Shown one piece after another: positions 18,772 to 38,489 of a stretch of DNA of 51,891 bases. The notes below the pieces were generated by a model, which made no database searches, had not been told where the DNA came from, and was given only the letters and a program-made list of their open reading frames with translations. Position numbers and translations under genes: made by a program. The stretch's first letter is position 1; the number at the start of each line of letters is the position of its first letter. Source of the stretch: Polyangiaceae bacterium (GTDB taxonomy: Bacteria; Myxococcota_A; Polyangia; Polyangiales; Polyangiaceae); contig DAONZA010000008.1 in assembly GCA_035414525.1 (NCBI GenBank), forward strand, positions 1 to 51,891, given 5' to 3'.

Positions 18772-18796
18772 GCTCGCCTCCCATAGGGCCCGTAAC

Positions 18797-19156
18797 TCAG
18801 TAATCGTCCTCGTTCTTGGCGTGAGGAATGATAGGCTGCATCATCGGTAGTCCGGGAGCCGCGGGGGCGTATCCCATCGACGGTGACCCTTGGACTGCCG
18901 AAGGCTCTTCCTCGTGCTTGTCTTCCGCGGTCGGCAATGTGGGTTGACGCGCCTCCATCGCATCGACGTTGTTGGTCACGTCCACGAGGTTGTCGTAGTA
19001 CCTATCCACTTCGTCTTTCTTCAGACGACCGGTTTTCAAGTTCCGGTCTCGAACGCGCACATCGAAGTCCCATAAAATTCTAGTGTCCGTCATCATTTCT
19101 CCATCATGGTACTCGCCTTGGGCTGAGCCGTATGACCCTGGATCTTTGCGAGGCAT
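18797..19156 (-). CDS. Hypothetical acidic protein downstream of the Ser/Thr kinase
   Basis: ORF in the kinase orientation, 40 nt after the kinase stop. An alternative start is MMTDT at 19096. No recognisable motif. Confidence 0.4.
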   Translation of the reverse strand: MPRKDPGSYGSAQGEYHDGEMMTDTRILWDFDVRVRDRNLKTGRLKKDEVDRYYDNLVDVTNNVDAMEARQPTLPTAEDKHEEEPSAVQGSPSMGYAPAAPGLPMMQPIIPHAKNEDDY

Positions 19157-19195
19157 TGGTCAACAGGCGGAGCGTCGCTTGGCAGGTTTGCAGTC

Positions 19196-20557
19196 TCAAT
19201 ACCCTAGGTCAATGGTTGTCGTCGAGGGCGGTAACGTTCGACTTGGTCCCCGGCTTGCGGTTTGGACAGCCGATGCCTGGGGTGGGCGTATTTTTGGGCG
19301 TGATGACGATGGCGCATCCGAGGCGGCAGCATTCGAGGCCATCGATTCAGGCAAGGAAATTGAGGCTTCCTCTTCCGAGTTCGCTGCGGGCGCAATCATG
19401 TTAACTATTTGTATTTCCTCAGGAAAATAAGGATGGGACGCCTCGGCGGCCATCGGTTCGGAAAGGGAAGCCGACGAATACCACCAGCCCACCAGCAGCG
19501 ATGCGCAAGCTCCCAACAGCACGAGTGTTCCTCCCAACACACCCCTGGACATTCGGCTGCGCCCTGGCGGATTCGTGGTCGCGACTTGTGTCGTGGCACT
19601 CTCGATCGATGAATGAGAAGCATTTGTGCGGCTTTCGACCAGGTGCGGGTTGAGAAGGTCGGTGGCGAAGGACTGAGGGGGCGATGAACCCGACGCCGCC
19701 CATAACGATGAGGCGAGTTCTTTGGCAGAGTCAAAGCGCATCTCGCGGTCCCGGGCCACGCAACGACGGAACCAATCGTCGAAAGCCTTAGGAAGGGAAG
19801 GAACGAGTGTGCTGGGGAGCACGGGATCTTTGGTGCAGATATTGACAACGATATCGCCGACGGCTTCGCCTTGGAACGGTAGGGTGCCGACGGCGCAGCG
19901 GTAAGCGATGACGCCCAGGGCCCAAAGGTCGCTCCTATGGTCGATATCCCGAAGGCCGCGAGCCTGTTCTGGACTCATATACACGGGCGTTCCTAAAATC
20001 GTACCGGAACGCGTCGACGATGGCTGAGACAGCGGGGTGCCTTCGATGAATTTGGCAATGCCGAAATCGACGATCTTCGCCACGGTTTCGTCTTCATCGG
20101 GAGACTCGGTCAGGAAGATATTCTCTGGTTTGAGATCACGATGCACGATGCCATGCTCGTGCGCTTTGGACAGGCCGCGAGCGACCTGGTCGATGATCCG
20201 TGCCACTTCGACAAGAGGCAGACGGTGATTGGTAGCGGCACGCTCTTCGAGCGTTTGCCCCCGAAGGTATTCCATGACGATGAAAGGACGACCATCGGGC
20301 ATCACTCCATGGTCGAAGACGGTGACGACATAACGAGAGGAAAGCGTTGCCGCGGCGCGGGCTTCCTTGTCGAATCGATTCCGTGCTTCGTGGTTTTCGG
20401 CCAGGTCGTGTTCGATCATCTTGATCGCGACCTTCGTTCCCAACGTAATGTGTTGCCCCTCCCAGACCGTGCCCATTCCCCCTTGTCCGATCATGCGTAT
20501 CAATCGGTACTTGCCGGCTATCCATTCGCTGTTCGGAGCGTCTGCTGCGTCGTTCAT
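19196..20557 (-). CDS. Eukaryotic-like Ser/Thr protein kinase with a single TM and a Ser/Pro-rich extracytoplasmic tail
   Basis: Kinase subdomains are present: GQGGMGTVWEG...VAIKMI (Gly loop and Lys), HRDLKPENIFL, DFGIAK, GTPVYMSPE. The TM is VLGGTLVLLGACASLLVGWWY. Confidence 0.9.
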   Translation of the reverse strand: MNDAADAPNSEWIAGKYRLIRMIGQGGMGTVWEGQHITLGTKVAIKMIEHDLAENHEARNRFDKEARAAATLSSRYVVTVFDHGVMPDGRPFIVMEYLRGQTLEERAATNHRLPLVEVARIIDQVARGLSKAHEHGIVHRDLKPENIFLTESPDEDETVAKIVDFGIAKFIEGTPLSQPSSTRSGTILGTPVYMSPEQARGLRDIDHRSDLWALGVIAYRCAVGTLPFQGEAVGDIVVNICTKDPVLPSTLVPSLPKAFDDWFRRCVARDREMRFDSAKELASSLWAASGSSPPQSFATDLLNPHLVESRTNASHSSIESATTQVATTNPPGRSRMSRGVLGGTLVLLGACASLLVGWWYSSASLSEPMAAEASHPYFPEEIQIVNMIAPAANSEEEASISLPESMASNAAASDAPSSSRPKIRPPQASAVQTASRGPSRTLPPSTTTIDLGY

Positions 20558-20643
20558 CGTTTCGTTCGCCGCCCCTAGACTACCTTTTCCTTGGTGCGGT
20601 CGCCAACCGTAAGCATTCTATCCTTGCTCAATGTGCGCTACGC

Positions 20644-23352
20644 ATGGCTCCCATGACGACGCTTCCTCCGGTTGGGGCCACCGATGCCCTGTATATCGTT
20701 GATCTGTCTGGCTACGTGTTTCGCGCATACCACGCGATTGCTCCGCTTTCCTCTCCGACCGGCGAGCCGTCGCATGCCACCTACGGCACTATCACGATGC
20801 TCAACCGACTGATCGATGAGCGAAAGCCGACGCTGATGGCGGTGGCCATGGATTCGAAAGGTCCGTCGTTTCGAAAGCAAATCGACAATGCCTACAAAGC
20901 GAATCGCCCGCCTCCTCCCGAAGACCTTTCGATTCAAATGCAACGCGTTCGCGGGCTCGTGTCCTTGCTTGGTCTTACCGTCTGGAAACAAGATGGTTTC
21001 GAAGCGGATGACTTGATCGCCAGTGGGGTGAAACGAGCCTGCTCGGAAGGTCTTCGCGTGGTGATCATCAGCGCGGACAAGGACCTCATGCAGTTGGTTG
21101 GTGCATCTGTGGTTATGTGGGACACGATGCGCAACAAGGTGTACGGGCCCGCGGAAGTGCGAGAAAAATTTGGGGTTTTTCCTGATAAAATGAGGGATCT
21201 TCTCGCCATGACGGGAGATAGTTCCGACAATGTGATGGGCATTCCCTCGGTCGGACCGAAAACGGCGGCCAAGCTGCTGGATCAATACGGATCCATCGAA
21301 GGGGTGTACGAAGGAATCGACGAGATCAAAGGCAAGCTTCGGGAGAACCTTGTCGAGCATCGCGCCTCTGCGGAACTTGCACGTTTGCTCGTGACCTTGC
21401 GCGACGACTTGGACGTTTCGTTCGAGCGATCGGCCTTGGATTTTCATGCTCGAACGGATTGGAAAGGCTTGGAGGCCGCGTATGTCGAGCTTGGGTTCTC
21501 GCGCATGCTCGAAGCGATGCGTCCACAAATGGAGATCGACTTCGATCAGCCCCAGGCAGACGATTATCGCTTGGTGCTTGAGGAGGCGGATCTTCGTTCG
21601 GCCGTGCAAGCCTGTCATGAGGCTGGCCTGATGGGCCTGGATACGGAAACGGATTCCACCGACGCCATGCGAGCTCGCCTCGTGGGAATCTCTCTATCCT
21701 GTCGTCCCCATGAGGGGTGGTACATCCCGGTCGGGCATGCTTACCTTGGCGTTCCTTCGCAATTGGACATCGACCGCGTTCGGGAAATTCTCAATCCACT
21801 GCTGATTTCGAGTGAAGTTCGCAAGGTGGGGCACCATGTGAAGTTCGACGAAACCGTGTTGCGCCGCCACGGCTTCGGTCCGATGCAAGCCGTGGCCTCC
21901 GATACGATGATCGAGAGTTATCTGTTGGACCCTGAAGCTTCCCATGGACTGAAGGAGGTTGCGAAACGCGAACTTCACGTGGAGATGATGACCTACGAGC
22001 AGGTGGTGGGAGGCAAAGGTTCGAAGGCAGTCACATTCGATAAGGTGCCACTCGAACGAGCGTCTCGTTATGCGTGCGCGGATGCGGATCTGTCTTTGCA
22101 GCTTCACCACCTGCAGCGAGATCGAATCGAACGACAAGGGATGAGCGATCTTCTCACGCAAGTCGAAATCCCGTTGATTTCCGTGCTGATAGATATGGAG
22201 AGCGCTGGCGTGCTGATCGATGTCATTCAGCTCGAGCAGCTAGGATCGATGCTGCAAGAGCGGATGAAAGAGTTGGAAGCTACAGCGAAACAGCAGGCGG
22301 GACGCGACTTCAACGTGGGTTCCCCCCGACAGCTCGAAACGATTCTCTTCGATGAGCTTGGGCTTCCTGTGAAAAAGCGGACCAAAAGCGCGCGCAGCAC
22401 CGATGCCAGTGTGCTGGAAGCGTTGGTGGACATGCATCCGTTGGTTGGGACGATTCTTGCCCTTCGTCAGCTTTCGAAGCTGCAAAGCACCTATGTCGAA
22501 ACCCTGCCGAAGTTGGTTCATCCGACCACGGGGCGTATTCATACACGGTTCAATCAAAGTGTGGCCGCCACGGGTAGGCTTTCCTCCAGCGATCCGAACT
22601 TGCAAAATATCCCGGTGCGAACGCAAGAAGGCCTGGCCATTCGTCGCGCTTTCATTGCTCCACAAGGCTATACGTTGTTGAGCGCCGACTATTCGCAGAT
22701 CGAATTGCGGGTCCTGGCGCATCTATCGAAAGATCCAGTGCTCATCGATGCCTTCAGAAATCATGAAGATATTCATTCGCGCACCGCGATGGAAATCTTT
22801 GGCGTATCGTCGCAACAGGTAACGGCCGAGCAACGTCGTCAAGCCAAGACGATCAACTTTGGTGTGATTTATGGAATGGGAGAAGTGGCGCTATCGAAGA
22901 AACTAGGGATCGAGCGGGGGGAGGCTCGACAATTCATCGATCGGTATTTTTCGCGGTACGAAGGCGTGCGAAGGTTCATGGATTCGACGTTGGAAGCGGC
23001 ACGTCAAGGGCAGGCCGTGGAAACCATTCTAGGTCGACGTCGGTATTTGCCGGATTTGCGTAGCTCAAACCGTGTCCTGCGCGCCCAAGCGGAGCGAATA
23101 GCGGGAAATACGCCAATTCAAGGGAGCGCCGCCGATCTATTGAAACTTGCAATGGTTCGTTTGGCGGCTCCTGTCGTGCCAGGGGCCAGAATGATTTTGA
23201 CGGTTCACGATGAATTGATCTTCGAAGTACCCGAAAACCATGTGGAGGAAGCCGAAAACCGCGTTCGTCAGGCCATGGAGTCGGTGATGGATCTGGATGT
23301 GCCGTTGCTCGTCGATGTCGGGGTTGGACCAAGCTGGGCCGACGCCCACTGA
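20644..23352 (+). CDS. polA: DNA polymerase I with 5'-3' exonuclease, 3'-5' exonuclease and polymerase domains
   Basis: 902 aa. The N-terminal 5' nuclease domain reads LYIVDLSGYVFRAYHA. Polymerase motif A is LLSADYSQIELRVLAHLS, motif B is RRQAKTINFGVIYGM and motif C is VHDELIFE. Confidence 0.95.
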   Translation: MAPMTTLPPVGATDALYIVDLSGYVFRAYHAIAPLSSPTGEPSHATYGTITMLNRLIDERKPTLMAVAMDSKGPSFRKQIDNAYKANRPPPPEDLSIQMQRVRGLVSLLGLTVWKQDGFEADDLIASGVKRACSEGLRVVIISADKDLMQLVGASVVMWDTMRNKVYGPAEVREKFGVFPDKMRDLLAMTGDSSDNVMGIPSVGPKTAAKLLDQYGSIEGVYEGIDEIKGKLRENLVEHRASAELARLLVTLRDDLDVSFERSALDFHARTDWKGLEAAYVELGFSRMLEAMRPQMEIDFDQPQADDYRLVLEEADLRSAVQACHEAGLMGLDTETDSTDAMRARLVGISLSCRPHEGWYIPVGHAYLGVPSQLDIDRVREILNPLLISSEVRKVGHHVKFDETVLRRHGFGPMQAVASDTMIESYLLDPEASHGLKEVAKRELHVEMMTYEQVVGGKGSKAVTFDKVPLERASRYACADADLSLQLHHLQRDRIERQGMSDLLTQVEIPLISVLIDMESAGVLIDVIQLEQLGSMLQERMKELEATAKQQAGRDFNVGSPRQLETILFDELGLPVKKRTKSARSTDASVLEALVDMHPLVGTILALRQLSKLQSTYVETLPKLVHPTTGRIHTRFNQSVAATGRLSSSDPNLQNIPVRTQEGLAIRRAFIAPQGYTLLSADYSQIELRVLAHLSKDPVLIDAFRNHEDIHSRTAMEIFGVSSQQVTAEQRRQAKTINFGVIYGMGEVALSKKLGIERGEARQFIDRYFSRYEGVRRFMDSTLEAARQGQAVETILGRRRYLPDLRSSNRVLRAQAERIAGNTPIQGSAADLLKLAMVRLAAPVVPGARMILTVHDELIFEVPENHVEEAENRVRQAMESVMDLDVPLLVDVGVGPSWADAH

Positions 23353-23358
23353 CGGTCC

Positions 23359-24294
23359 TTGCCTCTGGGGCAACCTGCACTATCGTCGGCGCCCATGGCG
23401 TGGCGTTTCGCGGTTGGTTTCTTGCTAGGTTGGGCATTCCTTCCTTCGATGGGGTGCTCCCATCGTGAACCATCCGACCAAGGGGTAGCCTCGGCGTCGT
23501 CGACGGTGTCGGCGCCTGCTCCGGTGCAACAACCTTCGAGACCGTCAATGGGCGAGAATGTGTTGGTGGAAAAAGAAGATGGGCAGTTTGTGCAAGGCCG
23601 TGTGGTCAAGGACGGCGACCCGATCACGGTGGAATATGGCGGCCGAAAAACGAAGATCAGGGTTTCCGACGACCGGGTGTATGGGCTGGGTTCTCGTGCG
23701 GCCGCGGTAACCATCAACGATTTTGCGGCGTGCAAAACTGCCCCGGATACCTGGGTGGGCTGTCTCATCAAGCAGGTCGCTTCGGGACGGGTAGAGGTGG
23801 AAGATGCGCAGGGCAAGACGTATGACCTAGCGGAGGGCGATGTGGTGGGGCTACGGGAGGAGACGCGGCGGCGGATCGGTCAAAAACACAAGGAATTGTC
23901 CGAACATAGAGATTTTTTCGCGGCCATGAACCAGCAAACACGACCGTATCAACCGCCGGGATGGGAGCCAAAACCAGGCGATGAAGTGGTGGCAAGACAC
24001 GAAGACGGCTCCTGGCGTGGAGGAAGGATTCGCCGCATCACGCCCACGAACGTGCATGTTTCGTGGGACGATAAGTCACCGCTTTCGATCCGGGAAGCGC
24101 GTGAGGTCACGCCGAAACCGAAAAAGCCGCAGGATGTGCAACCGGGGCAAATGGTTCTGGCTCGTCCGAGAAAAGGGTCGGTGTGGGAGTTGTACCGGGT
24201 GCAGAGTATCGATGCCAAAGGAGTGCTCATCGTGGACCAGGACGGACGTTCCCGCAAAGCTCGTAAAAGCGAACTCATTGCGTTCGGAAGTTGA
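23359..24294 (+). CDS. Lipoprotein built from four Tudor/SH3-like small beta modules, 7 nt downstream of polA
   Basis: Signal and lipobox FLLGWAFLPSMGCSH; an alternative start is M at 23395. Four repeats of about 45 aa of the type G(D/E)xV(V/L)AR...G.W..G....I......V.... (for example GDEVVARHEDGSWRGGRIRRIT and GQMVLARPRKGSVWELYRVQSI). Confidence 0.55.
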   Translation: MPLGQPALSSAPMAWRFAVGFLLGWAFLPSMGCSHREPSDQGVASASSTVSAPAPVQQPSRPSMGENVLVEKEDGQFVQGRVVKDGDPITVEYGGRKTKIRVSDDRVYGLGSRAAAVTINDFAACKTAPDTWVGCLIKQVASGRVEVEDAQGKTYDLAEGDVVGLREETRRRIGQKHKELSEHRDFFAAMNQQTRPYQPPGWEPKPGDEVVARHEDGSWRGGRIRRITPTNVHVSWDDKSPLSIREAREVTPKPKKPQDVQPGQMVLARPRKGSVWELYRVQSIDAKGVLIVDQDGRSRKARKSELIAFGS

Positions 24295-24751
24295 TTCCGA
24301 TCAATAGAGAGCAAGAGAATCCGCTCCGGTGACCGTGTCGTTTCCATCGAACGTCGGGGTATTGATAAACTATAATAAATACAACAATATACACGCTTAG
24401 GGCGGTGTATTGGGTGGTATTGACGTTGGTCTATCGGGGTGATTCGAAGGGCCATGGGTTGTGGGGAGGTGGTTCCGCGGGGGATGGGCCACGTAGCGGA
24501 TAAATCAGATCAACACTCGCTCACCTCCAGCGGAAAACCGTCCTTCCAGCTTCCCTGCTCACGCGATGGCGAATCACCAACGCATCGAACCAAGGCGCGC
24601 ACGGCTTACGTTCGTCGATTCAGCATAATATGGGTTGTAGCAGACGCGGCAGCCCCGTGCAGTCGGCGCTTGCACAGTCGCGGCGTTAGGGGGCTTCCCA
24701 AAATCGTGCTCAGAGCCGAAATACATGCCGATCAGTCGGTTGCGACGTTAA

Positions 24752-24780
24752 GGTAACGGTGTTATTGTAACAGCATTACA
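24752..24780. promoter_or_regulatory. Candidate TetR operator: repeated GTAAC half-sites plus the palindrome TGTAA-CAGCA-TTACA, 30 to 55 nt upstream of the TetR start
   Basis: The sequence GGTAACGGTGTTATTGTAACAGCATTACA lies directly upstream of the TetR ATG at 24809. TetR-family repressors typically bind 15-20-bp palindromes overlapping their own promoter. Confidence 0.35.
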
Positions 24781-24808
24781 TCCACGAACCGCACCGGAAG
24801 GAGCCCCC

Positions 24809-25489
24809 ATGCCAAGACGCCGTCGTTCGGAAAACGAGGTCGAAGCCGTGCGAAACCAGATCTTGGACGAGGCATTGAACTTGTTCGTGGAGGCAGGTTG
24901 GCAAGGTTTTTCCATGCGCAAACTCGGCGCTCGCCTGGGCATCGCCGCGAAAACGGTCTACAACTACTTCGCCTCCCAAGACGAATTGTACCTCGGTCTG
25001 CTCACCCGCGGCTTTCATAGCCTCGGTCAGGCTCTTGCCAAAGCGGCCGAACCCCATACCAACCCATTCGAACGGCTCGACGCGCTGATCGATGCCTACG
25101 TGACGTTTGCCTTCGACAATACACACCTATACGGGTTGATGTTCACCTGGCATGTGCCCAAGTATGACGACTACGTGGGCACGGCGATGGAGAACACGGC
25201 TCGGGTCGAACTCGAGACGGCGCTCGACAGTCTCCGCCTGACTGCCACTACCATCGCTGCCTGCACCGGCACGCCGCCAGCAAGGGATGACCTGTACTTC
25301 ATCACGGTTCGCCTGTGGACGCAGTTACATGGTTATATCGCAGGCATCCACAACCACCTCATCGACTACATGCATCCTGACCCGGCTTCTCTGAAAGAGC
25401 GCATGATCACACGGATCAAAAATAGCGTTGTCCATGAGATTCTCGCTCTGAACCCCACCGCTGCGCGTGAGCAGCCAACCCTGCAGTGA
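24809..25489 (+). CDS. TetR/AcrR-family transcriptional regulator
   Basis: The N-terminal HTH is RNQILDEALNLFVEAGWQGFSMRKLGARLGIAAKTVYNYFASQDELYLGL. It sits immediately upstream of the glycyl-radical operon, with a 15-nt gap. Confidence 0.85.
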   Translation: MPRRRRSENEVEAVRNQILDEALNLFVEAGWQGFSMRKLGARLGIAAKTVYNYFASQDELYLGLLTRGFHSLGQALAKAAEPHTNPFERLDALIDAYVTFAFDNTHLYGLMFTWHVPKYDDYVGTAMENTARVELETALDSLRLTATTIAACTGTPPARDDLYFITVRLWTQLHGYIAGIHNHLIDYMHPDPASLKERMITRIKNSVVHEILALNPTAAREQPTLQ

Positions 25490-25504
25490 GGAGGGATAGC
25501 AGCG

Positions 25505-26437
25505 ATGACGGCCATTCTGACGAAGCACGAACCGTTGCTGCTCGAGGTGAAAGGCAACGCGCTTGACGACGGTCCGGGCATTCGCTCGGTGGTTTTTTTC
25601 AAGGGCTGTAAGCTGTCGTGCCGATGGTGTCATAACCCGGAAAGTTTGAGTCAAAACGCTGAGTTGTCATTTAATGTTGCGGATTGTATTTCCGGCTGTA
25701 CCCGATGTCGTGGCCACTGCCCCGAGGACGCCATCATGCCTGGTGTCGGCATCAATCGTTGGGCCTGCACCAGATGCTTCGACTGCGTACCGGTCTGTCC
25801 ATCGGGGGCTTTGCGCCAGGTGGGTAAGCCAGCCAACGTCGCCGAGTTGATGGCCAAGCTTCGCGCGGATAAGCCCTTTTATGAAGCCTCCGGAGGCGGC
25901 GTCACCTTTTCCGGGGGAGAGCCGACTCTAGCGATGGAGCTGCTTGGGGAACTTGCCGCGGCCTGTCGTGCCGAAGGTATACACACCCTTTTAGAGACTG
26001 CCGGATACTTTCGGTGGGAGCCGTTCGAACGAGGGGTGCTGCCGCATCTGAACGCCATCTATTATGACCTGAAACTCATGGATTCCGAGGACCACCGTGC
26101 GTATTGCGGGGTGCCGAACGAGCGGATCCTGGCCAATTTCAAGCGGTTGGTGGAGCTATCCCGTGCCGGGACGTTCGATCTGCAGCCGCGCATTCCGCTG
26201 GTCCCGGATATCACCGCGACGGAAGAAAACCTGACGGCGATCGGCCGATTTCTGCTCGATGTGGGGGTTCGTCAAGTCCGGTTGCTGGATTACAATCCAA
26301 CCTGGGTAGACAAGGGTCCTCAATTGGGAATTGCTAACAAATTCACTGAGTTAGATATTATGCGGACATGGCTGCCCCGCGGCCTGGCAGCCCGACTGCG
26401 CCAACATCTCGTTGATCTCGGCCTGGAGGCGATATGA
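25505..26437 (+). CDS. Glycyl-radical enzyme activating enzyme. It is a radical SAM enzyme with two auxiliary ferredoxin-like clusters, the TIGR02494-type seen with GRE eliminases
   Basis: The radical-SAM motif is CKLSCRWCHNPE (CxxxCxxC). There are two ferredoxin-like Cys clusters, CTRCRGHCPEDAI and CTRCFDCVPVCPSGAL, and a GGE motif (FSGGEPTL). The stop overlaps the GRE start (ATGA). Confidence 0.9.
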   Translation: MTAILTKHEPLLLEVKGNALDDGPGIRSVVFFKGCKLSCRWCHNPESLSQNAELSFNVADCISGCTRCRGHCPEDAIMPGVGINRWACTRCFDCVPVCPSGALRQVGKPANVAELMAKLRADKPFYEASGGGVTFSGGEPTLAMELLGELAAACRAEGIHTLLETAGYFRWEPFERGVLPHLNAIYYDLKLMDSEDHRAYCGVPNERILANFKRLVELSRAGTFDLQPRIPLVPDITATEENLTAIGRFLLDVGVRQVRLLDYNPTWVDKGPQLGIANKFTELDIMRTWLPRGLAARLRQHLVDLGLEAI

Positions 26438-29400
26438 CGTTCCCCAACACCTCTTCGTCCACTTCTTCCGGAACCGAGCATGCCATGACCATGGCCGAAC
26501 CGACCGCTGTGAAGCTGCCCCCGGTGGACCCGCTGGACATGCGCCCATTTCATCCGGACCCGGCGGTGAGCGATGCGGCGCGCCACAGTCCGCAACAATT
26601 GATCGTGCGTGGGCTGCTCGGTCTCATGGCCAAGCTCTACACCTGGCACCCCAGGTTGCGTGACGAATTGCGTATCAAGGACGGTTGGATCGATCTTGTG
26701 GTCGGCATTCGCACCCGCTCTGGCTCCGTGCGCACCGGAATCCGGTTTCGAGATGGCAAAGCAAAGGCGATGGGCCGCATTCCCGAGGCCGTCGATGTCG
26801 TGCTGGTATTCAAATCCGACGCTGAAGTTACGAAATTCCTCACGGCCACGCCAACCGAGCAGGTCCTCATGACGTTGCGCAACGACTTTTACGTCGATGG
26901 CAATACATCATCGCTAAACCTGTTCGTATATCTGATTTCCCGACTCCTTTTCCGCCAGCAAATCAAGAATCTGGCGAAAGATCTTCGTAACGATAACGCT
27001 GATCGTCGCACACAAGCCGGTGCCACGAATCCTGATCTGGCCCGGCAGATGCGCGAGCGTGCGGACTACCGCATTGCGACTTCGCAAGTCGATCCGGGTG
27101 TGAAATATCTCGAGGACCCCTACTTGCGTGATTTCAGTTTGAAGGATTTCCCGCGGCTAGCTAAGTTTTTGAACCGGCACCTCGACCATGACGCCGAGGT
27201 ATGCCCAGAATTGCCGAAACTATTGACCGAATGGCATCGAAAACACGGTTTCGAGCGAGATTCGAAGGGCAAGCCCTGGCACCCGGTGCTGCGCAAAGCC
27301 CTGGCCTATCAATATGTGATGGAGAATCGTCGGCCGATCATCCATGCCAACGACCTCATTGCCGGCACGACAACTACCAAGGAAACCGGTGTGGTTGTCT
27401 ATCCGGAGGGGCATGGGACGATGATCTGGGGCGAGCTGCTGACGGTGCCGCATCGACCTCTGAATCCTTACGGTGTCTCGGAGGAGACCCGAGAATTGCT
27501 GCATAAGGATGTATTCCCCTATTGGAGCCGTCGCAACTTCAAGGAATGGGTGCGAGACCACTACCGTTCGCCTTTGGGCCAGCGTATCGACGACCGATTT
27601 GCGGTCTATTTCGACTGGAAAACCGCAACCATCTCACACACGATCCCGGATTTCCCCAAGATGTTGCGGCTGGGAACGTCCGGCATCATCGCCGAGATCG
27701 AGGAAGCGATGGCTGCCGACTCGGATGAGGAGCGTAATACCACCCGGCGGGCATTCATTCTCGCGCTGGAGGGGTTGGGCACCTATTCTCGGCATTTGGC
27801 GGCGCAAGCGGCGTATGAGGCGGAGCGGGAAAGCGACCCCAGTCGGGCGGCTGAGTTGCGCCGACTGGCCGAGATCTGTAGCCAGGTGGTCGTGGGGCCA
27901 GCCCGCACGCTCGATGAGGCGGTGAATTCGGTGTGGATCACGTGGGTGGGGCTGCATATGGAAAGCACCAATGCCGGGCTGTCGATGGGCCGGTTGGACC
28001 AGTGGCTGCAGCCATATTTCGAGGCCGATATGGGCAAGTTGGAGACTTTGGAGCAGCGGCGGGCCTACACCAAACGTGCGATTGAACTGGTGGGTGACTT
28101 GATGCTGCGCTGCACGGACCACTTGCCGCTGACTCCCGACGTGGCCAACTACTACTTTGGTGGCAGTTCCTCGGATCAAGCGATCACGCTGGGCGGGGTG
28201 ACCCCCGAAGGCGAAGACGCGGTCTGCGATATGACGTATATATTCTTGAAAGTCACTGAAATCCTTAGTCTTCGCGACCCAAATGTGAACGCTAGATTCC
28301 ATCTGGGCAAAAACAGCCAAGCGTACCTGAAGCGTCTTTGCGAGGTCAATCTGATCACGGCGGCGACTCCGTCGTTGCATAACGACGAGGTCGTGGGGAA
28401 GGCCTTGAGCCGCTATGGCTATGAGGTACGTGACGTGCGTGATTGGGCGGCGACCGGGTGTGTGGAGCCGACGCTGTCGGGAAAGCATATCGGCCATACC
28501 AATTTCCAGATGCTCAGTCTGGTGGCGGCGCTGGAGATGGCGTTGAACGACGGCTGGCATCCGCTGATGGATTGGAAGGTGGGACCATCTACCGGTTCGA
28601 TCGAGGCTGGCGATTTTGCGAATTTCGACCAGTTTTTCGAGGCTTACCGGCAGCAGGTGGCTTTTCTGGTCGACCGATCGATCGAGTACAACGAGATGTT
28701 GGGTAAGGCGCATCAGCAGCTTCGTCCGACGCCACTGCTGTCCAGCCTGATCGAGGGCACCATTGCATCGGGAAAGGATGTTACGTATGGGGGAGCCAGG
28801 TACAACAGTTCTGGGGCTGCGTGCATCGGGCTGGTTGACGTCATCGATTCGATGTTGGTGATCCAGAAGCTCGTATTCGAGCAACGAGTTGTGTCATTCG
28901 CTGACCTCAAGCGGGCAGTGGACACGAATTTCGCCAACGATCCGCTGTTATTGGCGCAGGTATCCCACAAAGTAGCGCTTTTTGGCTCGGGCAACGAAGA
29001 CGCCGTGGCGATGGGCAACCGCATTACCAAGATGGTGCAGTCGCTGTATGATCGGTATACCAACTACCGGGGAGGCCGTTATGCGGCTGGGTTCTGGTCG
29101 ATGTCTACGCATGTATCTTACGGCACGCTGGCTGGAGCTTTGCCGTCGGGGCGGTTGGCGGGCAAGCCATTTACGCCAGGTCTGACTCCCACACCGGGGG
29201 CATCGCCGAACCTATTGGACAATATCCGTGATGTGGCCAGGTTGGATCCGGCCAATATGCCGAACAATATTGCCTTCAATGTGAAGGTGGTGCCATCGGC
29301 CCATGAGTCGCGGGAGCGGACGGTCGACACGATGGCCGCGTACGTGAAGTCCTATTTTTCGCTGGGGGGCATGCAAATGCAGCTCAACGCAGTCACGTCC

Positions 29401-29541
29401 GATACCCTTCGCGACGCGATGGTTCATCCGGAGAACTATCGCAATTTGCTCGTGTGGATTTCCGGGTATAATGCCTATTTCGTCACGCTGAACAAGCAGA
29501 TGCAGCTCGAGCTGATCGAGCGCGCTGAGTACGGTATCTAG
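26434..29541 (+). CDS. Glycyl radical enzyme, eliminase-like (Cys-x-Glu active-site loop). It is unusually long (1035 aa), with an N-terminal extension of about 240 aa that contains an SCP2-like domain
   Basis: The catalytic thiyl loop is WAATGCVEPTLSG, with the Cys codon at 28459-61. The C-terminal glycyl-radical motif reads LLVWISGYNAYFVTLNKQMQLELIERAEY, with the Gly codon at 29464-66. This aligns with the canonical RVxGYSAxFxxL motif but has W in place of R. The N-terminal residues of about 50-170 (WIDLVVGIRTRSGSVRTGIRF...AVDVVLVFKSDAEVTKFLTATPTEQVLMTLRNDFYVDGNTSSLNLFVYLISRL) resemble an SCP2 sterol-carrier fold. Confidence 0.9.
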   Translation: MTFPNTSSSTSSGTEHAMTMAEPTAVKLPPVDPLDMRPFHPDPAVSDAARHSPQQLIVRGLLGLMAKLYTWHPRLRDELRIKDGWIDLVVGIRTRSGSVRTGIRFRDGKAKAMGRIPEAVDVVLVFKSDAEVTKFLTATPTEQVLMTLRNDFYVDGNTSSLNLFVYLISRLLFRQQIKNLAKDLRNDNADRRTQAGATNPDLARQMRERADYRIATSQVDPGVKYLEDPYLRDFSLKDFPRLAKFLNRHLDHDAEVCPELPKLLTEWHRKHGFERDSKGKPWHPVLRKALAYQYVMENRRPIIHANDLIAGTTTTKETGVVVYPEGHGTMIWGELLTVPHRPLNPYGVSEETRELLHKDVFPYWSRRNFKEWVRDHYRSPLGQRIDDRFAVYFDWKTATISHTIPDFPKMLRLGTSGIIAEIEEAMAADSDEERNTTRRAFILALEGLGTYSRHLAAQAAYEAERESDPSRAAELRRLAEICSQVVVGPARTLDEAVNSVWITWVGLHMESTNAGLSMGRLDQWLQPYFEADMGKLETLEQRRAYTKRAIELVGDLMLRCTDHLPLTPDVANYYFGGSSSDQAITLGGVTPEGEDAVCDMTYIFLKVTEILSLRDPNVNARFHLGKNSQAYLKRLCEVNLITAATPSLHNDEVVGKALSRYGYEVRDVRDWAATGCVEPTLSGKHIGHTNFQMLSLVAALEMALNDGWHPLMDWKVGPSTGSIEAGDFANFDQFFEAYRQQVAFLVDRSIEYNEMLGKAHQQLRPTPLLSSLIEGTIASGKDVTYGGARYNSSGAACIGLVDVIDSMLVIQKLVFEQRVVSFADLKRAVDTNFANDPLLLAQVSHKVALFGSGNEDAVAMGNRITKMVQSLYDRYTNYRGGRYAAGFWSMSTHVSYGTLAGALPSGRLAGKPFTPGLTPTPGASPNLLDNIRDVARLDPANMPNNIAFNVKVVPSAHESRERTVDTMAAYVKSYFSLGGMQMQLNAVTSDTLRDAMVHPENYRNLLVWISGYNAYFVTLNKQMQLELIERAEYGI

Positions 29542-29898
29542 GCCAACGCGGGTAAGTTCCAGCGATCTTTCCTGCTATGGTCCTGTGATAATGGCACCGC
29601 GGGTGGACGTTTTTCGACAGGGAGGTCTGCGAAGCAGTCCCGATAAGGACATTGGAATGAGCGAGATACGACAGATTTGTCACATCCCGGCTGCTCGTGC
29701 GCGGGGGAGACGAGCTTTCATGGATCGTAGTCTATGCGATAGTGCGGTGGATATTGGGGGGAGCCTTGAGGAGGATGTTGAAAAACGAGCGGCTTGCCTT
29801 GGAAATCATGGGATGAATCTTCGCGCTTTGGAGCTTGGCAGCGGTCTTGCTGTCGAGGGGGTGGCCATCTCGCGACGCTTCCGTTCGCGGCCCGGGCA

Positions 29899-31392
29899 TT
29901 ACGGCGCCAGATCCATCTCGCCGACGTAGCTATGCACCGATCCGTTCGACTCATCGAGTCCGGAGAAAAACACCACCCATCGATTTGGTTCGTACGTAAG
30001 TGGCGAGGTGTAGGGCTTAACCGGCGTATATCCCACGTAGCGAATATCACCGTTGGATGGCAATCCCGTGATGGGAACCGAATGCCATGTCCAGCTATCG
30101 CCCCGGTCCATGCTCACGCCAAGGGATATAGTCGCGCCGGGGCCGGCGTCGAGCAGGTATAGCGCTCCATGGCTAGCGAATTTGAGCTTGGCGTAGTTGC
30201 TTACGCATCCCACTGGCACGATCGTGGGCGGCTGCGCGAGCTCGCTGTCGAAGCGAAGGAGTTCCGTGCATTGTTTTTCACTTTTCGGTAAATAGGAGAG
30301 CGCGTACAACGTGCCCTGCGCGTCGTGTTCGAGGTCCGAGGGATAGGCGCTGACTATGCCTGGAACGGGTTGCGCTGGCGCACGACGGAATAATTGGCTC
30401 AGCGACGACGTATTTCCAACGTAGGCGGTGGAAGCGAGGTAGCTTGCGTTATTGCCCCCCGCGGGGTCGAACTCCCCGGCGTAAAGGATGAGTTGTGAAG
30501 AACCGAGGGACGGGTGTCCGGTCAAGATTGGATAAAGCAGGTATGCGGGGGCGGCTGTCAACGTGCCGATGGTGCCGTATTGCGCACCGCTGTACCACCA
30601 CTGTACCACACGTCCCCAGGCAGAGTCGGCCAGTGCCCATACTGTCACCCCGTCGGTGGTGGTTGCGATTCCCTGGTAGCCGTTGGACTCCGCGGTCCAT
30701 TCGTCATGGTTGCTGTAGGTATCGAAACGGAGCGCGCCGCTGCCATCCCGCGTGGAGAAGATCAGGTGGTAGAATCGCGAGTTTCTTCCCGTCGTCCCCG
30801 CTCCTCCTGGAAAACAGAGCACATCTTGCGTGGCGGGGCGCATACAATCGAAGATGAGGTGCAGCCGCTGCGATATGTCCATCACGATCCCAGGGGACTG
30901 ATGCGGATAAGCGATACGCGCAACTTCCACCCAAGCATGGAGGGCGCTTCCGGCCTCGCGTCTCATGATTGCCGCATAACGATCCGCTACGGAGGGGGGA
31001 TAATGGGTATGGACCGCATACCAGAATGCGCCGTCGCCCACGATTTTCGGCAGGTGGGCATTCCATGTGGCAGGTGTCGTCTGGGGGGAAGGTCCGGTGT
31101 GGATCAGCCCCACCCGCAATTCGGCCGGGATGAACGGCTCGATGGCGCTTTCCTCCCCGGCATCCTTAGACGAGTCGATCGATGAATCCCCGCCGATTTC
31201 ATCGGAAGCATCGACTGGGGTGGGCTCTTCGGGCGAACCATCCCATGGAATATAGGAATCAGAAACATCATCCGGGTCGATGCTGGCGTCGAGCACAGGA
31301 TTGGTCGCTCCGGCGGAAACGTGGCTCTCGCGGTCCGCGGCGCAAGCGGGTGGGACAATGACGAGCGCCGCGAGGCAAAGCGCGCGTTTCAT
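29899..31392 (-). CDS. Secreted protein with a BNR/Asp-box, probably a beta-propeller (sialidase/glycosidase-like fold); function unknown
   Basis: Signal peptide MKRALCLAALVIVPPACAA. The Asp-box is SMDRGDSWTWH (S-x-D-x-G-x-[ST]-W). An acidic low-complexity N-terminal region follows the signal. Confidence 0.55.
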   Translation of the reverse strand: MKRALCLAALVIVPPACAADRESHVSAGATNPVLDASIDPDDVSDSYIPWDGSPEEPTPVDASDEIGGDSSIDSSKDAGEESAIEPFIPAELRVGLIHTGPSPQTTPATWNAHLPKIVGDGAFWYAVHTHYPPSVADRYAAIMRREAGSALHAWVEVARIAYPHQSPGIVMDISQRLHLIFDCMRPATQDVLCFPGGAGTTGRNSRFYHLIFSTRDGSGALRFDTYSNHDEWTAESNGYQGIATTTDGVTVWALADSAWGRVVQWWYSGAQYGTIGTLTAAPAYLLYPILTGHPSLGSSQLILYAGEFDPAGGNNASYLASTAYVGNTSSLSQLFRRAPAQPVPGIVSAYPSDLEHDAQGTLYALSYLPKSEKQCTELLRFDSELAQPPTIVPVGCVSNYAKLKFASHGALYLLDAGPGATISLGVSMDRGDSWTWHSVPITGLPSNGDIRYVGYTPVKPYTSPLTYEPNRWVVFFSGLDESNGSVHSYVGEMDLAP

Positions 31393-32008
31393 TCTCCAAG
31401 GATACAGTGATGCGGTGATGGGAGCAAGGTCGAGTTGTGCGGGAGTGGAGAGTTCCGGCGACTATCTGGTTGCAAGACAACCCGATGACGCGGTTTCAAA
31501 GCGAATGAGCGGGACAGGCTTTCGTTTCCGCAAGGTTGAACGCATCGGCATGGGTGATTAATGTGTAAGCAATGGAAATAATTGATGAATATGAATCTGT
31601 GCTCGTCCATGGCTCGGGAGTCTTGTGGCGTGGGAGTATCCGGCTATCGACGCCGCTGCGGGGAAAAACCTCGGCATCGCCGACAGAGTCGTGATGGCGC
31701 AACACGAGCCCGCCCTGGTCGAGATCCAACCTGTCGAAAAGGCTCAACAAGGAAGTATGTCAATGCGGTGAACTCGTTATGATGCAGTATCGACGTGGTG
31801 GGCGCTTGGGGCTGCAGCGGTCGTTTTGGGTGTAGTCAACCACCATGGGAACGCGTCAAGGGGGTGTTGCGTTGGCAGGGCACATGCTCGAAAAAGCATG
31901 GAAGTCCCGGCGGGATCGGCCAAGATGACGGGTGGAGACTTTTTCCGTTGGCGTCTTCGAAGGTTCTCCGGTAGACCAGGGAAAACCCTTGGAAAATGAG
32001 GCAAATCC

Positions 32009-33583
32009 ATGTCCACTTCTCTGGATCGCAGGGACTTATTGCAAGTCATGGGCTACGGTGCGGCTACCGTATCGCTGCCTTTCGTGGCGGGTTGTGGTCG
32101 CACGGAAATCCAGCGTTTGACTTCCAAGTCACCGAGTTTGCAGGAACCGGGCAAGGATTCGGGAGCGGTGAGCGTGAGTCATTTTGATGCTTTCGGTGTC
32201 GATGAGGGATTGATACGCAAGGTATTATCCCGGGCGTTGTCGCGGGGGGCTTCTTTTTCGGAAATATTTTTGCAGCACAGGGTATCGCATTGGGTGGGTA
32301 TGGAAGATGGCGAGGTCAATAGGGCCTATTCCGAGGTGGGTCTTGGCGCGGGCATTCGCGTGATTCAAGGGGATACGACCGGATTTTCATTTACGGAGGA
32401 CCTGACGCCCGGGGCCTTGCTCGAAGCCGCGGACATGGCTTCCGCGGTGGCCGATGGCCCTTCCAGCCCGCGTTCGATAACCCTCACGCCTCGTATCGTC
32501 GTGTCTCGCTACACCGTGGAAACGCCGTGGACCGAAGTCGGCATCGACCGCAAGCTTCCGATCGTTCAGCGGGCGGAAAAAGCGGCGCGAAATCATGATA
32601 CGCGAATCATCAAGGTGACGGTGGCTCTTCAAGATGAGACCTCCCACATCCTGATCGCCAATTCCGAGGGGCTGCTGGTCGCCGACGAGCGGCCCATGGG
32701 CGTCCTTTCCGTGTCCTGTGTAGGAGAAAACAAGGGAAAAACTGAGACGGGGTACTGGACCTTCGCCCAGCGCGATGGGATTCGTTTTCTCACGCCAGCT
32801 CATATCGACGACACGGGAACCACGGCAGCGCGCAATACGGTGTTGCTTTTTGAAGCCGTGTCTCCGCCGGTGGGAGACATGCCGGTCGTCCTTGGGCCAG
32901 GAAATCCAGGACTGCTCTTGCACGAGGCCATTGGGCACGGGATGGAAGCGGATTTCAATCGCAAGGGGATTTCGATTTATGCGAACCGGATTGGAAAAAG
33001 AATCGCTCCGGAGGGTGTGACCATCGTGGATGGGGGCACTGGACGACAGCGTGGTTCGCTCAACATCGACGATGAAGGGCATCCCACCGAGGAGACGGTA
33101 TTGGTGGAAAACGGCGTATTACGCACCTATTTGCACGACCGTATTTCAGCGCAGCACTTCAAGGCGCCCCGTACAGGCTCGGGACGTCGTGAATCCTATT
33201 GTTATCCACCGGTGCCGCGAATGCGCAACACTTATATGCTTGCGGGGAAAGAAAGCCCGGAGGAGATCATCGCTTCCGTCAAAAAGGGGATTTACGCCGA
33301 GATCTTCACCAACGGACAGGTGATGATTGGTGCCGGGGATTTTACCTTCTATTTGAAACACGGAAGGCTCATCGAAGATGGGAAACTGACCCATGTGATC
33401 AAGGATGCGAACCTCATCGGCAATGGCCCAAACGTTCTCGAGAAGGTGGCGATGATCGGCAACGATTTGAAGCATATCACCGGGGCTGGCTATTGTGGCA
33501 AGGATGGGCAGGGCGTTCCGGTGGGTTTTGGATTACCGACCTTAAAAGTGAGTGGTATTTCCGTGGGTGGGAGGGGAGCATGA
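32009..33583 (+). CDS. tldD: TldD-family metallopeptidase carrying a twin-arginine (Tat) signal peptide with a lipobox
   Basis: The N-terminus is MSTSLDRRDLLQVMGYGAATVSLPFVAGCG. It contains the Tat motif S-L-D-R-R-D-L-L-Q and then the lipobox VAGC. The metal-binding HExxxH motif is HEAIGHGMEADF. An AAATGAGG RBS lies upstream. Confidence 0.9.
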   Translation: MSTSLDRRDLLQVMGYGAATVSLPFVAGCGRTEIQRLTSKSPSLQEPGKDSGAVSVSHFDAFGVDEGLIRKVLSRALSRGASFSEIFLQHRVSHWVGMEDGEVNRAYSEVGLGAGIRVIQGDTTGFSFTEDLTPGALLEAADMASAVADGPSSPRSITLTPRIVVSRYTVETPWTEVGIDRKLPIVQRAEKAARNHDTRIIKVTVALQDETSHILIANSEGLLVADERPMGVLSVSCVGENKGKTETGYWTFAQRDGIRFLTPAHIDDTGTTAARNTVLLFEAVSPPVGDMPVVLGPGNPGLLLHEAIGHGMEADFNRKGISIYANRIGKRIAPEGVTIVDGGTGRQRGSLNIDDEGHPTEETVLVENGVLRTYLHDRISAQHFKAPRTGSGRRESYCYPPVPRMRNTYMLAGKESPEEIIASVKKGIYAEIFTNGQVMIGAGDFTFYLKHGRLIEDGKLTHVIKDANLIGNGPNVLEKVAMIGNDLKHITGAGYCGKDGQGVPVGFGLPTLKVSGISVGGRGA

Positions 33584-34908
33584 ACGCGACGCTTATGCAA
33601 CTTGTTGAAAATGCGCTTATTTTGGCGAAACGGCAGGGCGCAGCGGCGGCGCGGGCAAGCGTATGGCGCATGCGGGAAAGTGGTGTGGAGTGGCGCGATG
33701 GGAAGCTCGACCGCTTGCGTGAGTCTGTCCACAAGGGCCTTTCCATCTCCTTATTTGTCGATGGGCGTTATTCTTCCCACACGACAAGCGATTTGCGTCC
33801 GGAAGCCATGGAGCTTTTCGTGGCCGAGTCGGTGGCGATGACCAAGGTGCTTCAGCCGGATCCCCATCGCAAGCTTCCCCCTTTGGAGCGCTGCCAAGAG
33901 AGGTTTGAGGGCGATCTTCTGCTGTTGGACAGGGACAATCTTGGTGTCATCGACGGTGCGGCGCAAAAAAAGCAGGCGATGGAGCTGGAACGAGCGATGC
34001 GGCAGGCCGAGGGCGCGGATCTCATCCTTTCGGCTACGGGAGCGATGCGTGTCTACCACACGATGAGCGCGATGAGGGATAGTCAGGGCACGAAAGGCGA
34101 GCGGGAATCTTCGGTTTTCGCTCGCTCGGCTTCCGCTACGGTTCGAGGCGAAGGGGATCGAAAACCTTCCGGGGGAGACTACGCTGCTACTCATCATTAT
34201 GCCGAACTTCCTTCGATGGACCTCATGGGCAAAGAAGCGGTGCGAAGGGCGTTGGCGGGGATTGGAGAAACCCCTTGGAAGAGTGGTAAGTATCCTTGTA
34301 TCATTGAGAACCGGGTGGCGGATCGTTTGCTCGGGGGGCTATTGGGGCCGTTGGGGGGCAACTCCTTGCAGCAAAAACGCTCGTATATGTCGGGTAAACT
34401 CGGAGAAAAGGTGGGGTCGATCCTCCTTCACATCGACGATGACCCTCTGCTGCCAAAGGGGGCGGCTTCTCGAACGTATGATTACGAAGGGATGAGCACC
34501 CGACGTCGTCCGATTTTCGAAAAAGGAGTTTTGCGAACGTATTTGTTGGATACCTATTACGCTTCCAAATTGGGGTGGGAGCCGACGGTCGGGGAGACGA
34601 GCAATCTAGTATTTCCCAAAGGAAAACAAGATCTTGCGGGATTGTTGCGCACGATGGGAAGAGGAATCCTCGTCACGGGGTTTTCCGGGGGCAATTCCAA
34701 TGCAGCGACGGGTGATTTTTCGATTGGCATCCGGGGGCATTGGGTGGAGTCCGGGCGTATCGTCAAACCCGTGGCCGAAATGAATCTTGCGGGCAACCAC
34801 CTCACGTTCTGGCAAGCCTTGGCGGAGCTTGGTTCGGATCCATACCCGTATCGTGGGGCACGGACCCCTTCGATGCGGTTCCATGAAGTGCAGTTTTCCG
34901 GGGTGTGA
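33580..34908 (+). CDS. pmbA: PmbA/TldE-family protein, the partner of TldD; it has no signal peptide
   Basis: The ATG at 33580 overlaps the tldD stop (ATGA). TldE-like sequence is seen throughout, for example GFSGGNSNAATGDFSIGIRGHWVESG. It lacks the HExxxH motif, as expected for TldE. Confidence 0.85.
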   Translation: MNATLMQLVENALILAKRQGAAAARASVWRMRESGVEWRDGKLDRLRESVHKGLSISLFVDGRYSSHTTSDLRPEAMELFVAESVAMTKVLQPDPHRKLPPLERCQERFEGDLLLLDRDNLGVIDGAAQKKQAMELERAMRQAEGADLILSATGAMRVYHTMSAMRDSQGTKGERESSVFARSASATVRGEGDRKPSGGDYAATHHYAELPSMDLMGKEAVRRALAGIGETPWKSGKYPCIIENRVADRLLGGLLGPLGGNSLQQKRSYMSGKLGEKVGSILLHIDDDPLLPKGAASRTYDYEGMSTRRRPIFEKGVLRTYLLDTYYASKLGWEPTVGETSNLVFPKGKQDLAGLLRTMGRGILVTGFSGGNSNAATGDFSIGIRGHWVESGRIVKPVAEMNLAGNHLTFWQALAELGSDPYPYRGARTPSMRFHEVQFSGV

Positions 34909-35547
34909 TTTCCCTCCGGTATCGGGAATTGGGTGGGAGAAGCTGCTTGGAGAAGCGAGAACGCTGGCGGGAGGTTGGAGAAGGCCGAGGGGGCCGTTTG
35001 TCTAACGTATTGAATTGGACTGAGAACGGGATTCCGCATCGAGGACCCAGATGGGTGATTAGGCCATTCAAGCTATCGCTGTGGCGGGGCTTGATTGTAT
35101 TACGGATCGATATTACGGGCACACTCGAGAGGCGTCTCGAACTTGTATCAGGCTTGGAGGCATGCTGTCCTTGCAGGGAGGCAGGCCTTATCAGGTTCAG
35201 GACGAGATATTTTTCGGTTGTCGTCTCCATCTTTCACGCGACGTTTTGCGGGCCCGGGGTTGCGCGACCGATTTCTACGACAGTATTGGGTTTTACGGCC
35301 ATTTGACGCATACCTCTCGGGGCAGTCACGGCCTTGCGACAGGAGAGTGGGCGCTCGGGTGCATCCGTGTACCGATGCATGACGGGCTGGTGCATGCGGA
35401 CGAAAAAGGGGGAGACTATTCGACATTTTCGCGAAGGGTTTGGTGGCATGGCACGGGCGCAGGGATTGCACCGATCACGGTGGTATTTGCCAGGAATAAT
35501 GGGTGTTGTGGTGGCCACCGTATCGACGTGCGACTAGGCTGTCGAGC

Positions 35548-36918: not shown

Positions 36919-37240
36919 CCTCGCGGCTCTTTTTGTTGTGCGGCGAACTCCAGCATCATCTGCAGTGCGGTTTCGAGATCTTCTCGTTGGGGAGGTTCGG
37001 GCAAGCTCATGAGCTGGCGTTTGAGTTGCAATAGATGGGTTCCGAACTGCTGATAGCGAAGACGGAAAGAATCCGAGGGGGCGTCTTGGATCCAACGCGC
37101 AACGATCTCTTGCAACTCGTCGAGATCGCTATCGACGAGCAGTTGAGCCATTTGGGAAGCCATGAGGTGAGGCATTGGGGGAAAGTCTAGCTCGGTCTTT
37201 GACGAAACGCATGGGTCGAGGCATAGGGATGGCAGTGCGA

Positions 37241-38473: not shown

Positions 38474-38489
38474 ATTCGAATAGGTGTGG

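Follow-up and report, generated by a model that had tools for sequence, protein, structure and literature searches.

The operon analysed here encodes a TetR-family regulator, a radical-SAM activating enzyme and a glycyl radical enzyme (GRE; HPY16417.1), and lies in a 51,891-nt stretch of contig DAONZA010000008.1 (hereafter the window, meaning that whole stretch), which NCBI labels as Polyangiaceae bacterium. With a probability of about 55%, it is read as a three-gene cassette, self-contained and spread horizontally, that directs anaerobic radical chemistry on a hydrophobic alcohol and lies in an island specific to the lineage of an uncultured, Polyangia-like digester bacterium. A hydrophobic alcohol is suggested as the GRE substrate by a predicted SCP2 domain, the lack of a conserved transporter, the relatives of the TetR protein, and the occasional presence of a short-chain dehydrogenase/reductase (SDR) or zinc-dependent alcohol dehydrogenase (Zn-ADH) gene nearby. 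An earlier note on this DNA, made from the sequence alone, had proposed a TetR-activase-GRE operon, and this was recovered in full at 24753–29541, operator included. The gap between the tetR and activase genes is 15 nt, and the activase and GRE genes overlap by 4 nt (ATGA). The features of the cassette are as follows.

24740–24768, plus strand: putative sigma-70-type promoter, with a −35 hexamer TTGCGA at 24740–24745, a 17-nt spacer and a −10 hexamer TATTGT at 24763–24768, proposed from the sequence and from orthologous loci.
24753–24765 (GTAACGGTGTTAT) and 24767–24779 (GTAACAGCATTAC), no strand assigned: putative TetR operator, two adjacent 13-bp palindromes (RTAAC-N3-RTTAY).
24809–25489, plus strand: TetR-family regulator, 226 aa, first gene of the operon (TetR_N and TetR_C_33).
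25505–26437, plus strand: GRE activating enzyme, radical SAM, with two auxiliary ferredoxin-like clusters (TIGR02494, 247 bits, cutoff 174).
26434–29541, plus strand: glycyl radical enzyme, 1035 aa, Cys-X-Glu (CXE; eliminase/isomerase) type (PFL-like PF02901, 4.9e-154; Gly_radical PF01228, 2.1e-20).
26580–27020, plus strand: predicted SCP2-fold lipid-binding domain of the GRE, approximately residues 50–195 (AlphaFold2 core pLDDT 85–95; Foldseek).

Both Pfam matches, together with TMt values of up to 0.90 to solved GREs, place the third protein in the GRE superfamily. Its catalytic loop reads G-C676-V-E678-P, and the GCVEP segment is invariant in 120 homologs; the radical glycine lies in V-W-I-S-G1011-Y. 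According to a 2026 review, the CXE motif is common to the characterised 1,2-eliminases and isomerases, and in the structures described there the CXE glutamate hydrogen-bonds the substrate hydroxyl (PMC13450708). Judged by C676-V-E678, the window GRE is assigned to this eliminase/isomerase group and, judged by its scores, is placed outside every characterised GRE family, as it stays under every NCBIfam equivalog cutoff (TIGR01774, 495 against 678 bits; CutC TIGR04394, 363 against 1050; HypD, 352 against 1100). The closest structures are those of propanediol dehydratase (PD), glycerol dehydratase (GD), CutC, HypD and the Archaeoglobus fulgidus PFL2, at 25–29% identity and TMt 0.86–0.90. The substrate-binding residues of GD correspond to the following positions.

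GD His164: His402 in the window GRE, kept.
GD His281/Ser282: Ala514/Gly515, replaced; invariant in a 38-sequence alignment.
GD Asp447: Asn690, replaced; invariant in the same alignment.

The replacement of His281/Ser282 and Asp447 excludes the canonical small-diol pocket and suggests an active site roomier than that of GD. Several known identities were tried and rejected: a B12-independent glycerol/propanediol dehydratase, by the TIGR01774 score and the two replaced sites despite the kept His164; the choline trimethylamine-lyase CutC, by the TIGR04394 score; and the X-succinate synthases (benzylsuccinate and methylalkylsuccinate synthases, BSS/MASS), by scores of 181 bits for MasD and 153 bits for BSS against 352–372 bits for PFL2 and GD, with no small-subunit genes in the contexts compared. 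The window GRE shares with GD (1r8w), PD (5i2a, 9rco), CutC and HypD the ten-stranded barrel, the CXE loop, the His164 equivalent, the C-terminal glycyl radical domain and an activase with auxiliary clusters. It differs from them by about 240 extra N-terminal residues, which include the SCP2 domain, and by a TetR-regulated locus where theirs are of the microcompartment or pdu/cut type. The best PDB sequence match, with 372 bits, is A. fulgidus PFL2/PflD (2f3o), which likewise has a GCVE loop and an ISMGRxDQ segment where GD has His-Ser; however, it is only 776 aa long, lacks the SCP2 domain and is about 29% identical to the window GRE. Its function is debated, with an alkylsuccinate synthase as one possibility (PMC13450708).

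The solved GREs cover about 810 of the 1035 residues of the window GRE, and none of them covers the SCP2 region. Searches with the N-terminal 200–260 residues against Pfam and PDB sequences gave nothing significant, so the domain was revealed only by fold comparison. In AlphaFold models built from family alignments, the domain is predicted to have the SCP2 fold and is followed by a long helix and then a flexible linker that runs to about residue 240. The top 45 Foldseek matches in the PDB are all SCP2 domains (probability 1.0, TMt 0.65–0.72), among them UbiJ-SCP2 (5.6e-6, TMt 0.70), A. fulgidus AF1534, the yeast, insect and human SCP2 proteins, and the SCP2 domain of alkylsulfatases. The Pfam SCP2 model (PF02036) does not match the window protein; it does match 5 of 22 family members weakly (best E = 0.0052) and is the most recurrent model there. 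A profile of the domain retrieved 291 representatives at E ≤ 0.001 among 1.84 billion, of which the full-length ones measure 984–1041 aa and the rest are mostly fragment-like; the full-length relatives of the GRE are all about 1000 aa long and share both the approximately 240 extra residues and the domain. The predicted domain resembles the UbiJ/UbiT-type domains, AF1534, the C-terminal domains of SdsA1/Pisa1 and the eukaryotic SCP2 domains in its alpha/beta fold, but is only 9–18% identical to them in sequence. In the alkylsulfatases SdsA1 and Pisa1, an SCP2 domain is joined to a catalytic domain whose substrates are hydrophobic. No description of a GRE fused to SCP2 or another sterol-carrier domain, or of an SCP2-bearing GRE family, was found in the literature searched, and the sections of the 2026 review that were covered mention no such fusion (PMC13450708).

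A total of 80 genomic loci encoding relatives of the GRE were collected, 73 of them non-duplicate. The activase gene adjoins the GRE gene in 52 of the 73, and TetR orthologs (33–62% identity) precede the activase-GRE pair in at least 21 loci across phyla. Only the regulator and the activase are consistently linked to the GRE; SDR, Zn-ADH, sulfatase and HdrD-like genes occur in minorities of loci, and the NCBIfam matches of the neighbouring SDRs and sulfatase are generic only. No conserved transporter stands beside the cassette among the loci compared, which fits a membrane-permeant substrate. Hosts of the family include Smithella, Syntrophales and Desulfobacterales. The GREs closest to the window copy come from contigs labelled Vicinamibacteraceae (85% identity) and Actinomycetes (73%), and those of Myxococcota metagenome-assembled genomes (MAGs) reach only 57%. 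Two such Myxococcota loci, L027 and L034, share with the window only generic kinase similarity in their surroundings.

Some of the collected loci have a distinctive arrangement. An IS110 transposase gene lies between the tetR and activase genes in a Desulfobacterales locus (L091, 4256–5305), and in a Leptospiraceae locus (L092, 3301–6246) the cassette is flanked by transposase fragments and a CRISPR-Cas remnant. Two further genes, at 9187–9963 and 13032–14546, enlarge the operon of the Desulfobacterales MAG L084, giving the order TetR-activase-SDR-GRE-sulfatase; by crude clustering of open reading frames (ORFs), genes resembling this SDR and sulfatase recur in a small number of additional loci of the Desulfobacterales type. 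Such an operon might point to lipid substrates that are sulfated or hydroxylated.

The cassette of the window lies within a larger segment that two relatives lack.

24294–35509, no strand assigned: lineage-specific island of 11.2 kb, containing the GRE cassette, a gene for a 497-aa protein (minus strand) and a TldD/PmbA pair; absent from loci L093 and L094.

These two loci, whose PolA proteins are 79% and 75% identical to that of the window, are collinear with it over 15195–24294, from a tRNA-Arg gene through the gene after polA, and again over 35509–40694, and carry an unrelated 1.2-kb segment in place of the 11.2 kb. Only the three-gene cassette (approximately 24800–29560) matches loci of other phyla, with unrelated flanks, and the relatives of the GRE are discordant with those of PolA. 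A horizontal gain of the cassette by the window lineage is the economical reading, because the island is missing in syntenic relatives, only the cassette is common to other phyla, the closest GREs carry labels outside Myxococcota, and transposase genes interrupt or adjoin the cassette in two other genomes (L091 and L092). From the GRE operon together with glpA-glpB, the earlier note had suggested either a facultative or microaerobic lifestyle or a recently acquired anaerobic module. Acquisition is favoured by the synteny, the cassette matches and the GRE relatives, but recency is not: the GC and codon comparison of 24.8–29.5 kb with the flanks, which that note had recommended, gave no compositional sign of transfer, as the GC content of the cassette is 57.4–57.7%, its codon distance lies in the same range as that of the flanking genes, and its GC content at third codon positions (0.70) is slightly higher. 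By this measure, the transfer would not be recent enough to have left a compositional trace. The search for mobile-element hallmarks at the island borders found chance-level repeats and no integrase, and the nearest tRNA genes are approximately 9–10 kb from either border.

Of the remaining island genes, the one at 29899–31392 (minus strand) encodes the 497-aa protein, which has no family match, and the TldD/PmbA pair occupies 32009–34908. Immediately before the island, the gene after polA (23548–24294, plus strand) encodes 248 aa as called in other assemblies; it is kept in the relatives at 46–66% identity and has no significant Pfam or NCBIfam match.

The earlier note had pointed to a GTAAC-repeat palindrome at 24752–24780 as a candidate operator. 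The element is real: the imperfect palindrome GTAACGGTGTTA-TTG-TAACAGCATTAC at 24753–24779, with 10 of 12 arm positions matching, is the best in the tetR leader, and it is better read as two adjacent 13-bp palindromes than as one. The pattern RTAACNNNRTTAY has three matches in the 51.9 kb, all at the 24753–24779 sites, against 0.06 expected from shuffles. In the comparison set of 21 non-redundant loci in which a TetR ortholog precedes the activase and GRE (the window included), the strict palindrome motif occurs within 200 nt upstream of tetR in 14, and degenerate copies such as TTAACACCGTTAA and CAACGCTGTTAC were seen by eye in several of the others. The operator stands upstream of tetR in loci of Actinomycetes, Desulfobacterales, Spirochaetota, Myxococcota and Bacteriovoracaceae.

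Most of the orthologous loci carry TTGAC approximately 8 nt before the first site, and the junction of the two sites reads TACTGT or TATTAT, resembling a −10 element (TATTGT in the window), so that the putative −10 hexamer spans the junction. A scan for consensus promoters did not flag 24740–24768, because only 8 of 12 positions match, and the promoter of the window is accordingly kept as putative. The protein combines a TetR_N helix-turn-helix with a ligand domain, and the palindrome conserved in its own promoter is the arrangement of a TetR repressor with its operator. Control of expression by TetR, as the earlier note had supposed, is thus supported by a cross-phyla operator lying over a likely −10 element, and the regulator is presumably autoregulated. 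The leader as a whole (24295–24808) is unusually long (510 nt) and gene-free, with an AT-rich portion at approximately 24360–24400 within a 57%-GC genome and no clear repeat; no Rfam match was found in it. The promoter/terminator scan flagged no terminator after the GRE gene.

The best characterised model matches of the TetR protein are weak, namely FasR, KstR and FadR, at 47 bits against equivalog cutoffs of 250–330. Its PDB matches are FasR (6o6p/6o6n), KstR and Mce3R, with E-values of 1e-9 to 1e-12. These weak matches suggest that, among characterised proteins, it is most closely related to sensors of lipids or acyl-CoA (FasR, KstR). It is like FasR, KstR, Mce3R and FadR in having TetR_N with a C-terminal ligand domain and a palindromic operator that overlaps its own promoter, but differs from them in lying far under their equivalog cutoffs. 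The second gene encodes a cognate radical-SAM activase directly adjacent to the GRE, with all expected motifs intact: DGPGIR (DGxGxR), C35xxxC39xxC42 and two Cx2Cx2Cx3C motifs (CISGCTRCRGHC and CTRCFDCVPVC).

A mechanism that joins these features can be proposed. TetR dimers bound to the two adjacent palindromes over the −10 element would repress their own operon until the regulator is freed by a hydrophobic inducer, which would be the substrate itself or a compound derived from it. Under anoxia, the activase would take a hydrogen from Gly1011, and the resulting glycyl radical would generate a thiyl radical on Cys676. The SCP2 domain would catch a poorly soluble, lipid-like substrate and pass it to the barrel, where the thiyl radical may take a hydrogen at or beside the carbinol carbon as Glu678 deprotonates the hydroxyl. 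Cleavage of a neighbouring C-O, C-N or C-S bond, by 1,2-elimination or isomerisation, would then yield an aldehyde or ketone, which an adjacent SDR or Zn-ADH may reduce in some genomes. In the window contig, the radical-installation step may be blocked by a substitution in the glycine loop.

29455–29457, plus strand: codon TGG (Trp1008; C>T at 29455) in place of the invariant arginine of the RVxG[FWY] fingerprint.

The GRE fingerprint around the radical glycine is given in the review as RVxG[FWY]x6-8[FL]x4Qx2[IV]x2R (PMC13450708). The family consensus, VRISGYNAYFVTLNxxMQLELIER, fits it with conservative changes, and the window reads WISGY, with W for the first R. Arginine occupies this position in all 120 homologs. 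The same protein occurs in its Arg form on 33 contigs, a single contig has the Trp form, and 29455 is the sole difference between the window and three independent assemblies over 23,108 nt. R1008W is either a genuine variant or an assembly error; if genuine, it would probably harm radical installation. Since the sole change in 23.1 kb hits an invariant arginine, the copy in the window may be crippled or mis-assembled.

The host lineage is Myxococcota, as the earlier note had placed it. This is borne out by the NCBI label, by the relatives of PolA and by the Myxococcota-type features of the window, which include MopE repeats, FGE domains, a Ser/Thr kinase and an extracytoplasmic function (ECF) sigma factor. 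The closest named relatives of PolA are Sorangium, Chondromyces and Polyangiaceae MAGs, at only 54–58% identity, and unnamed metagenomic relatives reach 60–80%; placed by PolA, the contig belongs to a deep, uncultured, 57%-GC Polyangia-like lineage. The same note had presumed an aerobic host, and this did not hold up. In the deposit Deltaproteobacteria bacterium ADurb.Bin207 the TetR and activase proteins are identical to those of the window, and the GRE differs only at residue 1008 (Arg). The tabulated ADurb MAGs derive from anaerobic digester sludge of the Champaign-Urbana Sanitary District (PMC8092238). In the assembly collection the locus appears in 105 blocks, and the organism has been reassembled from many samples; no description of ADurb.Bin207 was found in the literature searched. 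The host resembles myxobacteria but was recovered from an anoxic setting and is not one of their typical aerobic members. An oxygen-sensitive enzyme in the window is unsurprising because the organism comes from anaerobic digester sludge. The earlier note had allowed that a GRE would be unremarkable in a known facultative anaerobe with routine GRE content; the digester origin comes close to that situation, and the presence of the GRE is therefore not remarkable.

The GlpA-like and GlpB-like genes (11850–14779), which had been taken as an anaerobic glycerol-3-phosphate dehydrogenase and tied to the same module, were only partly sustained. Both genes are present, and the GlpA-like protein (11850–13535) has DAO, DAO_C and BFD domains; however, it scores 337 bits against a cutoff of 553 for TIGR03377, the GlpB-like protein scores 40 bits against 354, and no glpC adjoins them, so that the GlpA, GlpB and GlpC equivalogs do not occur together. 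The two genes are conserved in L093 and L094, which have no GRE island. They are therefore ancestral to the lineage, which weakens the link to an acquired module. Their position and orientation relative to the polA block differ in L093 and L094, and a rearrangement is implied.

Elsewhere in the window, a FadL/TodX-family outer-membrane channel for hydrophobic compounds is encoded at 9006–10559 (plus strand), approximately 15 kb upstream of the cassette and with no shown link to it. The gene at 42938–45427 (plus strand) encodes an 829-aa protein with MVP_shoulder (1.8e-27), Vault_3 and Band_7 matches and no NCBIfam model match; by its domains it resembles the major vault protein of eukaryotes, of which it may be a bacterial relative.

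Other explanations of the locus concern either the chemistry of the enzyme or its standing in the host. The GRE might be an ordinary B12-independent dehydratase of glycerol or 1,2-propanediol, or else act on choline or hydroxyproline, its N-terminal extension being only decoration. Its best neighbours in structure and sequence are indeed PD, GD, CutC and HypD, it has the CXE loop and a His164 equivalent, and an SDR or ADH lies near some loci. This is nevertheless considered very unlikely, as the scores are far under all equivalog cutoffs, the identity to any solved GRE is 25–29%, invariant Ala, Gly and Asn take the places of His281/Ser282 and Asp447 of GD, and no microcompartment, 1,3-propanediol dehydrogenase or choline-utilisation genes lie near the cassette in the contexts compared. 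A hydrocarbon-activating X-succinate synthase of the alkyl- or benzylsuccinate type, with the SCP2 domain binding an alkane, is scarcely more credible. One source annotates the ADurb.Bin207 copy as 'Benzylsuccinate synthase alpha subunit', PFL2 as the closest PDB sequence is itself debated as a possible alkylsuccinate synthase (PMC13450708), and both the SCP2 domain and the hosts Smithella, Syntrophales and Desulfobacterales would suit hydrocarbon niches. Such an enzyme is opposed by the low MasD and BSS scores and a lower structural rank, by the retention of the CXE glutamate that the same review assigns to eliminases and isomerases (PMC13450708), and by the lack of a small beta, gamma or delta subunit or of conserved fumarate-pathway genes adjacent to the GRE in the contexts compared.

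The cassette could also be a decaying or silent passenger, with its GRE inactivated by R1008W and uninformative on physiology. The position of this change in the fingerprint, and its being the sole difference from three assemblies, speak for such decay, but the Arg form outnumbers the Trp form by 33 contigs to one, the substitution may be an assembly or consensus error, and, this change aside, the three ORFs show no damage and do not differ between samples, which implies purifying selection in the population; decay is therefore thought unlikely, though less so than the enzymatic alternatives above. Least plausible of all is an obligately aerobic myxobacterium that recently gained an anaerobic module in an unexpected shift of lifestyle. 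The placement of PolA in Polyangia and the absence of the island in relatives would agree with it, but it is contradicted by the anaerobic-digester MAG and the reassembly of the locus from many samples, by the missing compositional sign of recent transfer, by the ancestral GlpA-like and GlpB-like genes, and by the occurrence of the GRE family in the Myxococcota MAGs L027 and L034.

Several considerations also weigh against the reading of the locus as a working cassette for a hydrophobic alcohol. The lipid argument draws on what SCP2 domains generally do and on a fold that is itself predicted, and the domain could alternatively serve membrane tethering, oligomerisation or regulation. The likeness of the TetR protein to FasR and KstR comes mostly from the DNA-binding domain, the proposed promoter hexamers scored under the scan threshold, and the genes next to the cassette are variable, with generic matches for the SDRs. 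The taxon labels on the short MAG contigs with the closest GREs could be mistaken. Biomass from aerobic sludge enters digesters, so the habitat alone is no proof of anaerobic growth, and R1008W may leave the GRE copy of the window non-functional.

Within the reading of the locus as a mobile cassette for hydrophobic alcohols, a bolder and distinctly tentative proposal is that the SCP2-fused GREs of about 1000 aa are the first GREs dedicated to lipid-like substrates, with the SCP2 domain feeding water-insoluble substrates to the radical site and the cassette acting as a mobile, inducible module for anaerobic lipid cleavage. Candidate substrates would be long-chain vicinal diols, alkyl- or acyl-glycerols, sphingoid bases and isoprenoid alcohols. 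Among the characterised GRE eliminases and isomerases that the 2026 review lists, none acts on a lipid (PMC13450708). If the proposal is true, such a module would have spread among Desulfobacterales, Spirochaetota, Syntrophales, Actinomycetes, Myxococcota, Clostridia and Asgard archaea.

The large, conserved and apparently unstudied clade of SCP2-fused GREs is a target for enzyme discovery that points to hydrophobic substrates, and the conserved TetR/operator pair may be usable as a biosensor for the inducer and hence for the substrate. R1008W amounts to a natural test of what the fingerprint arginine does. For the host, the puzzle of an oxygen-sensitive enzyme in an aerobe mostly dissolves, as its lineage lives in anaerobic digesters, and the cassette would illustrate how anaerobic radical chemistry has spread between phyla into Myxococcota.

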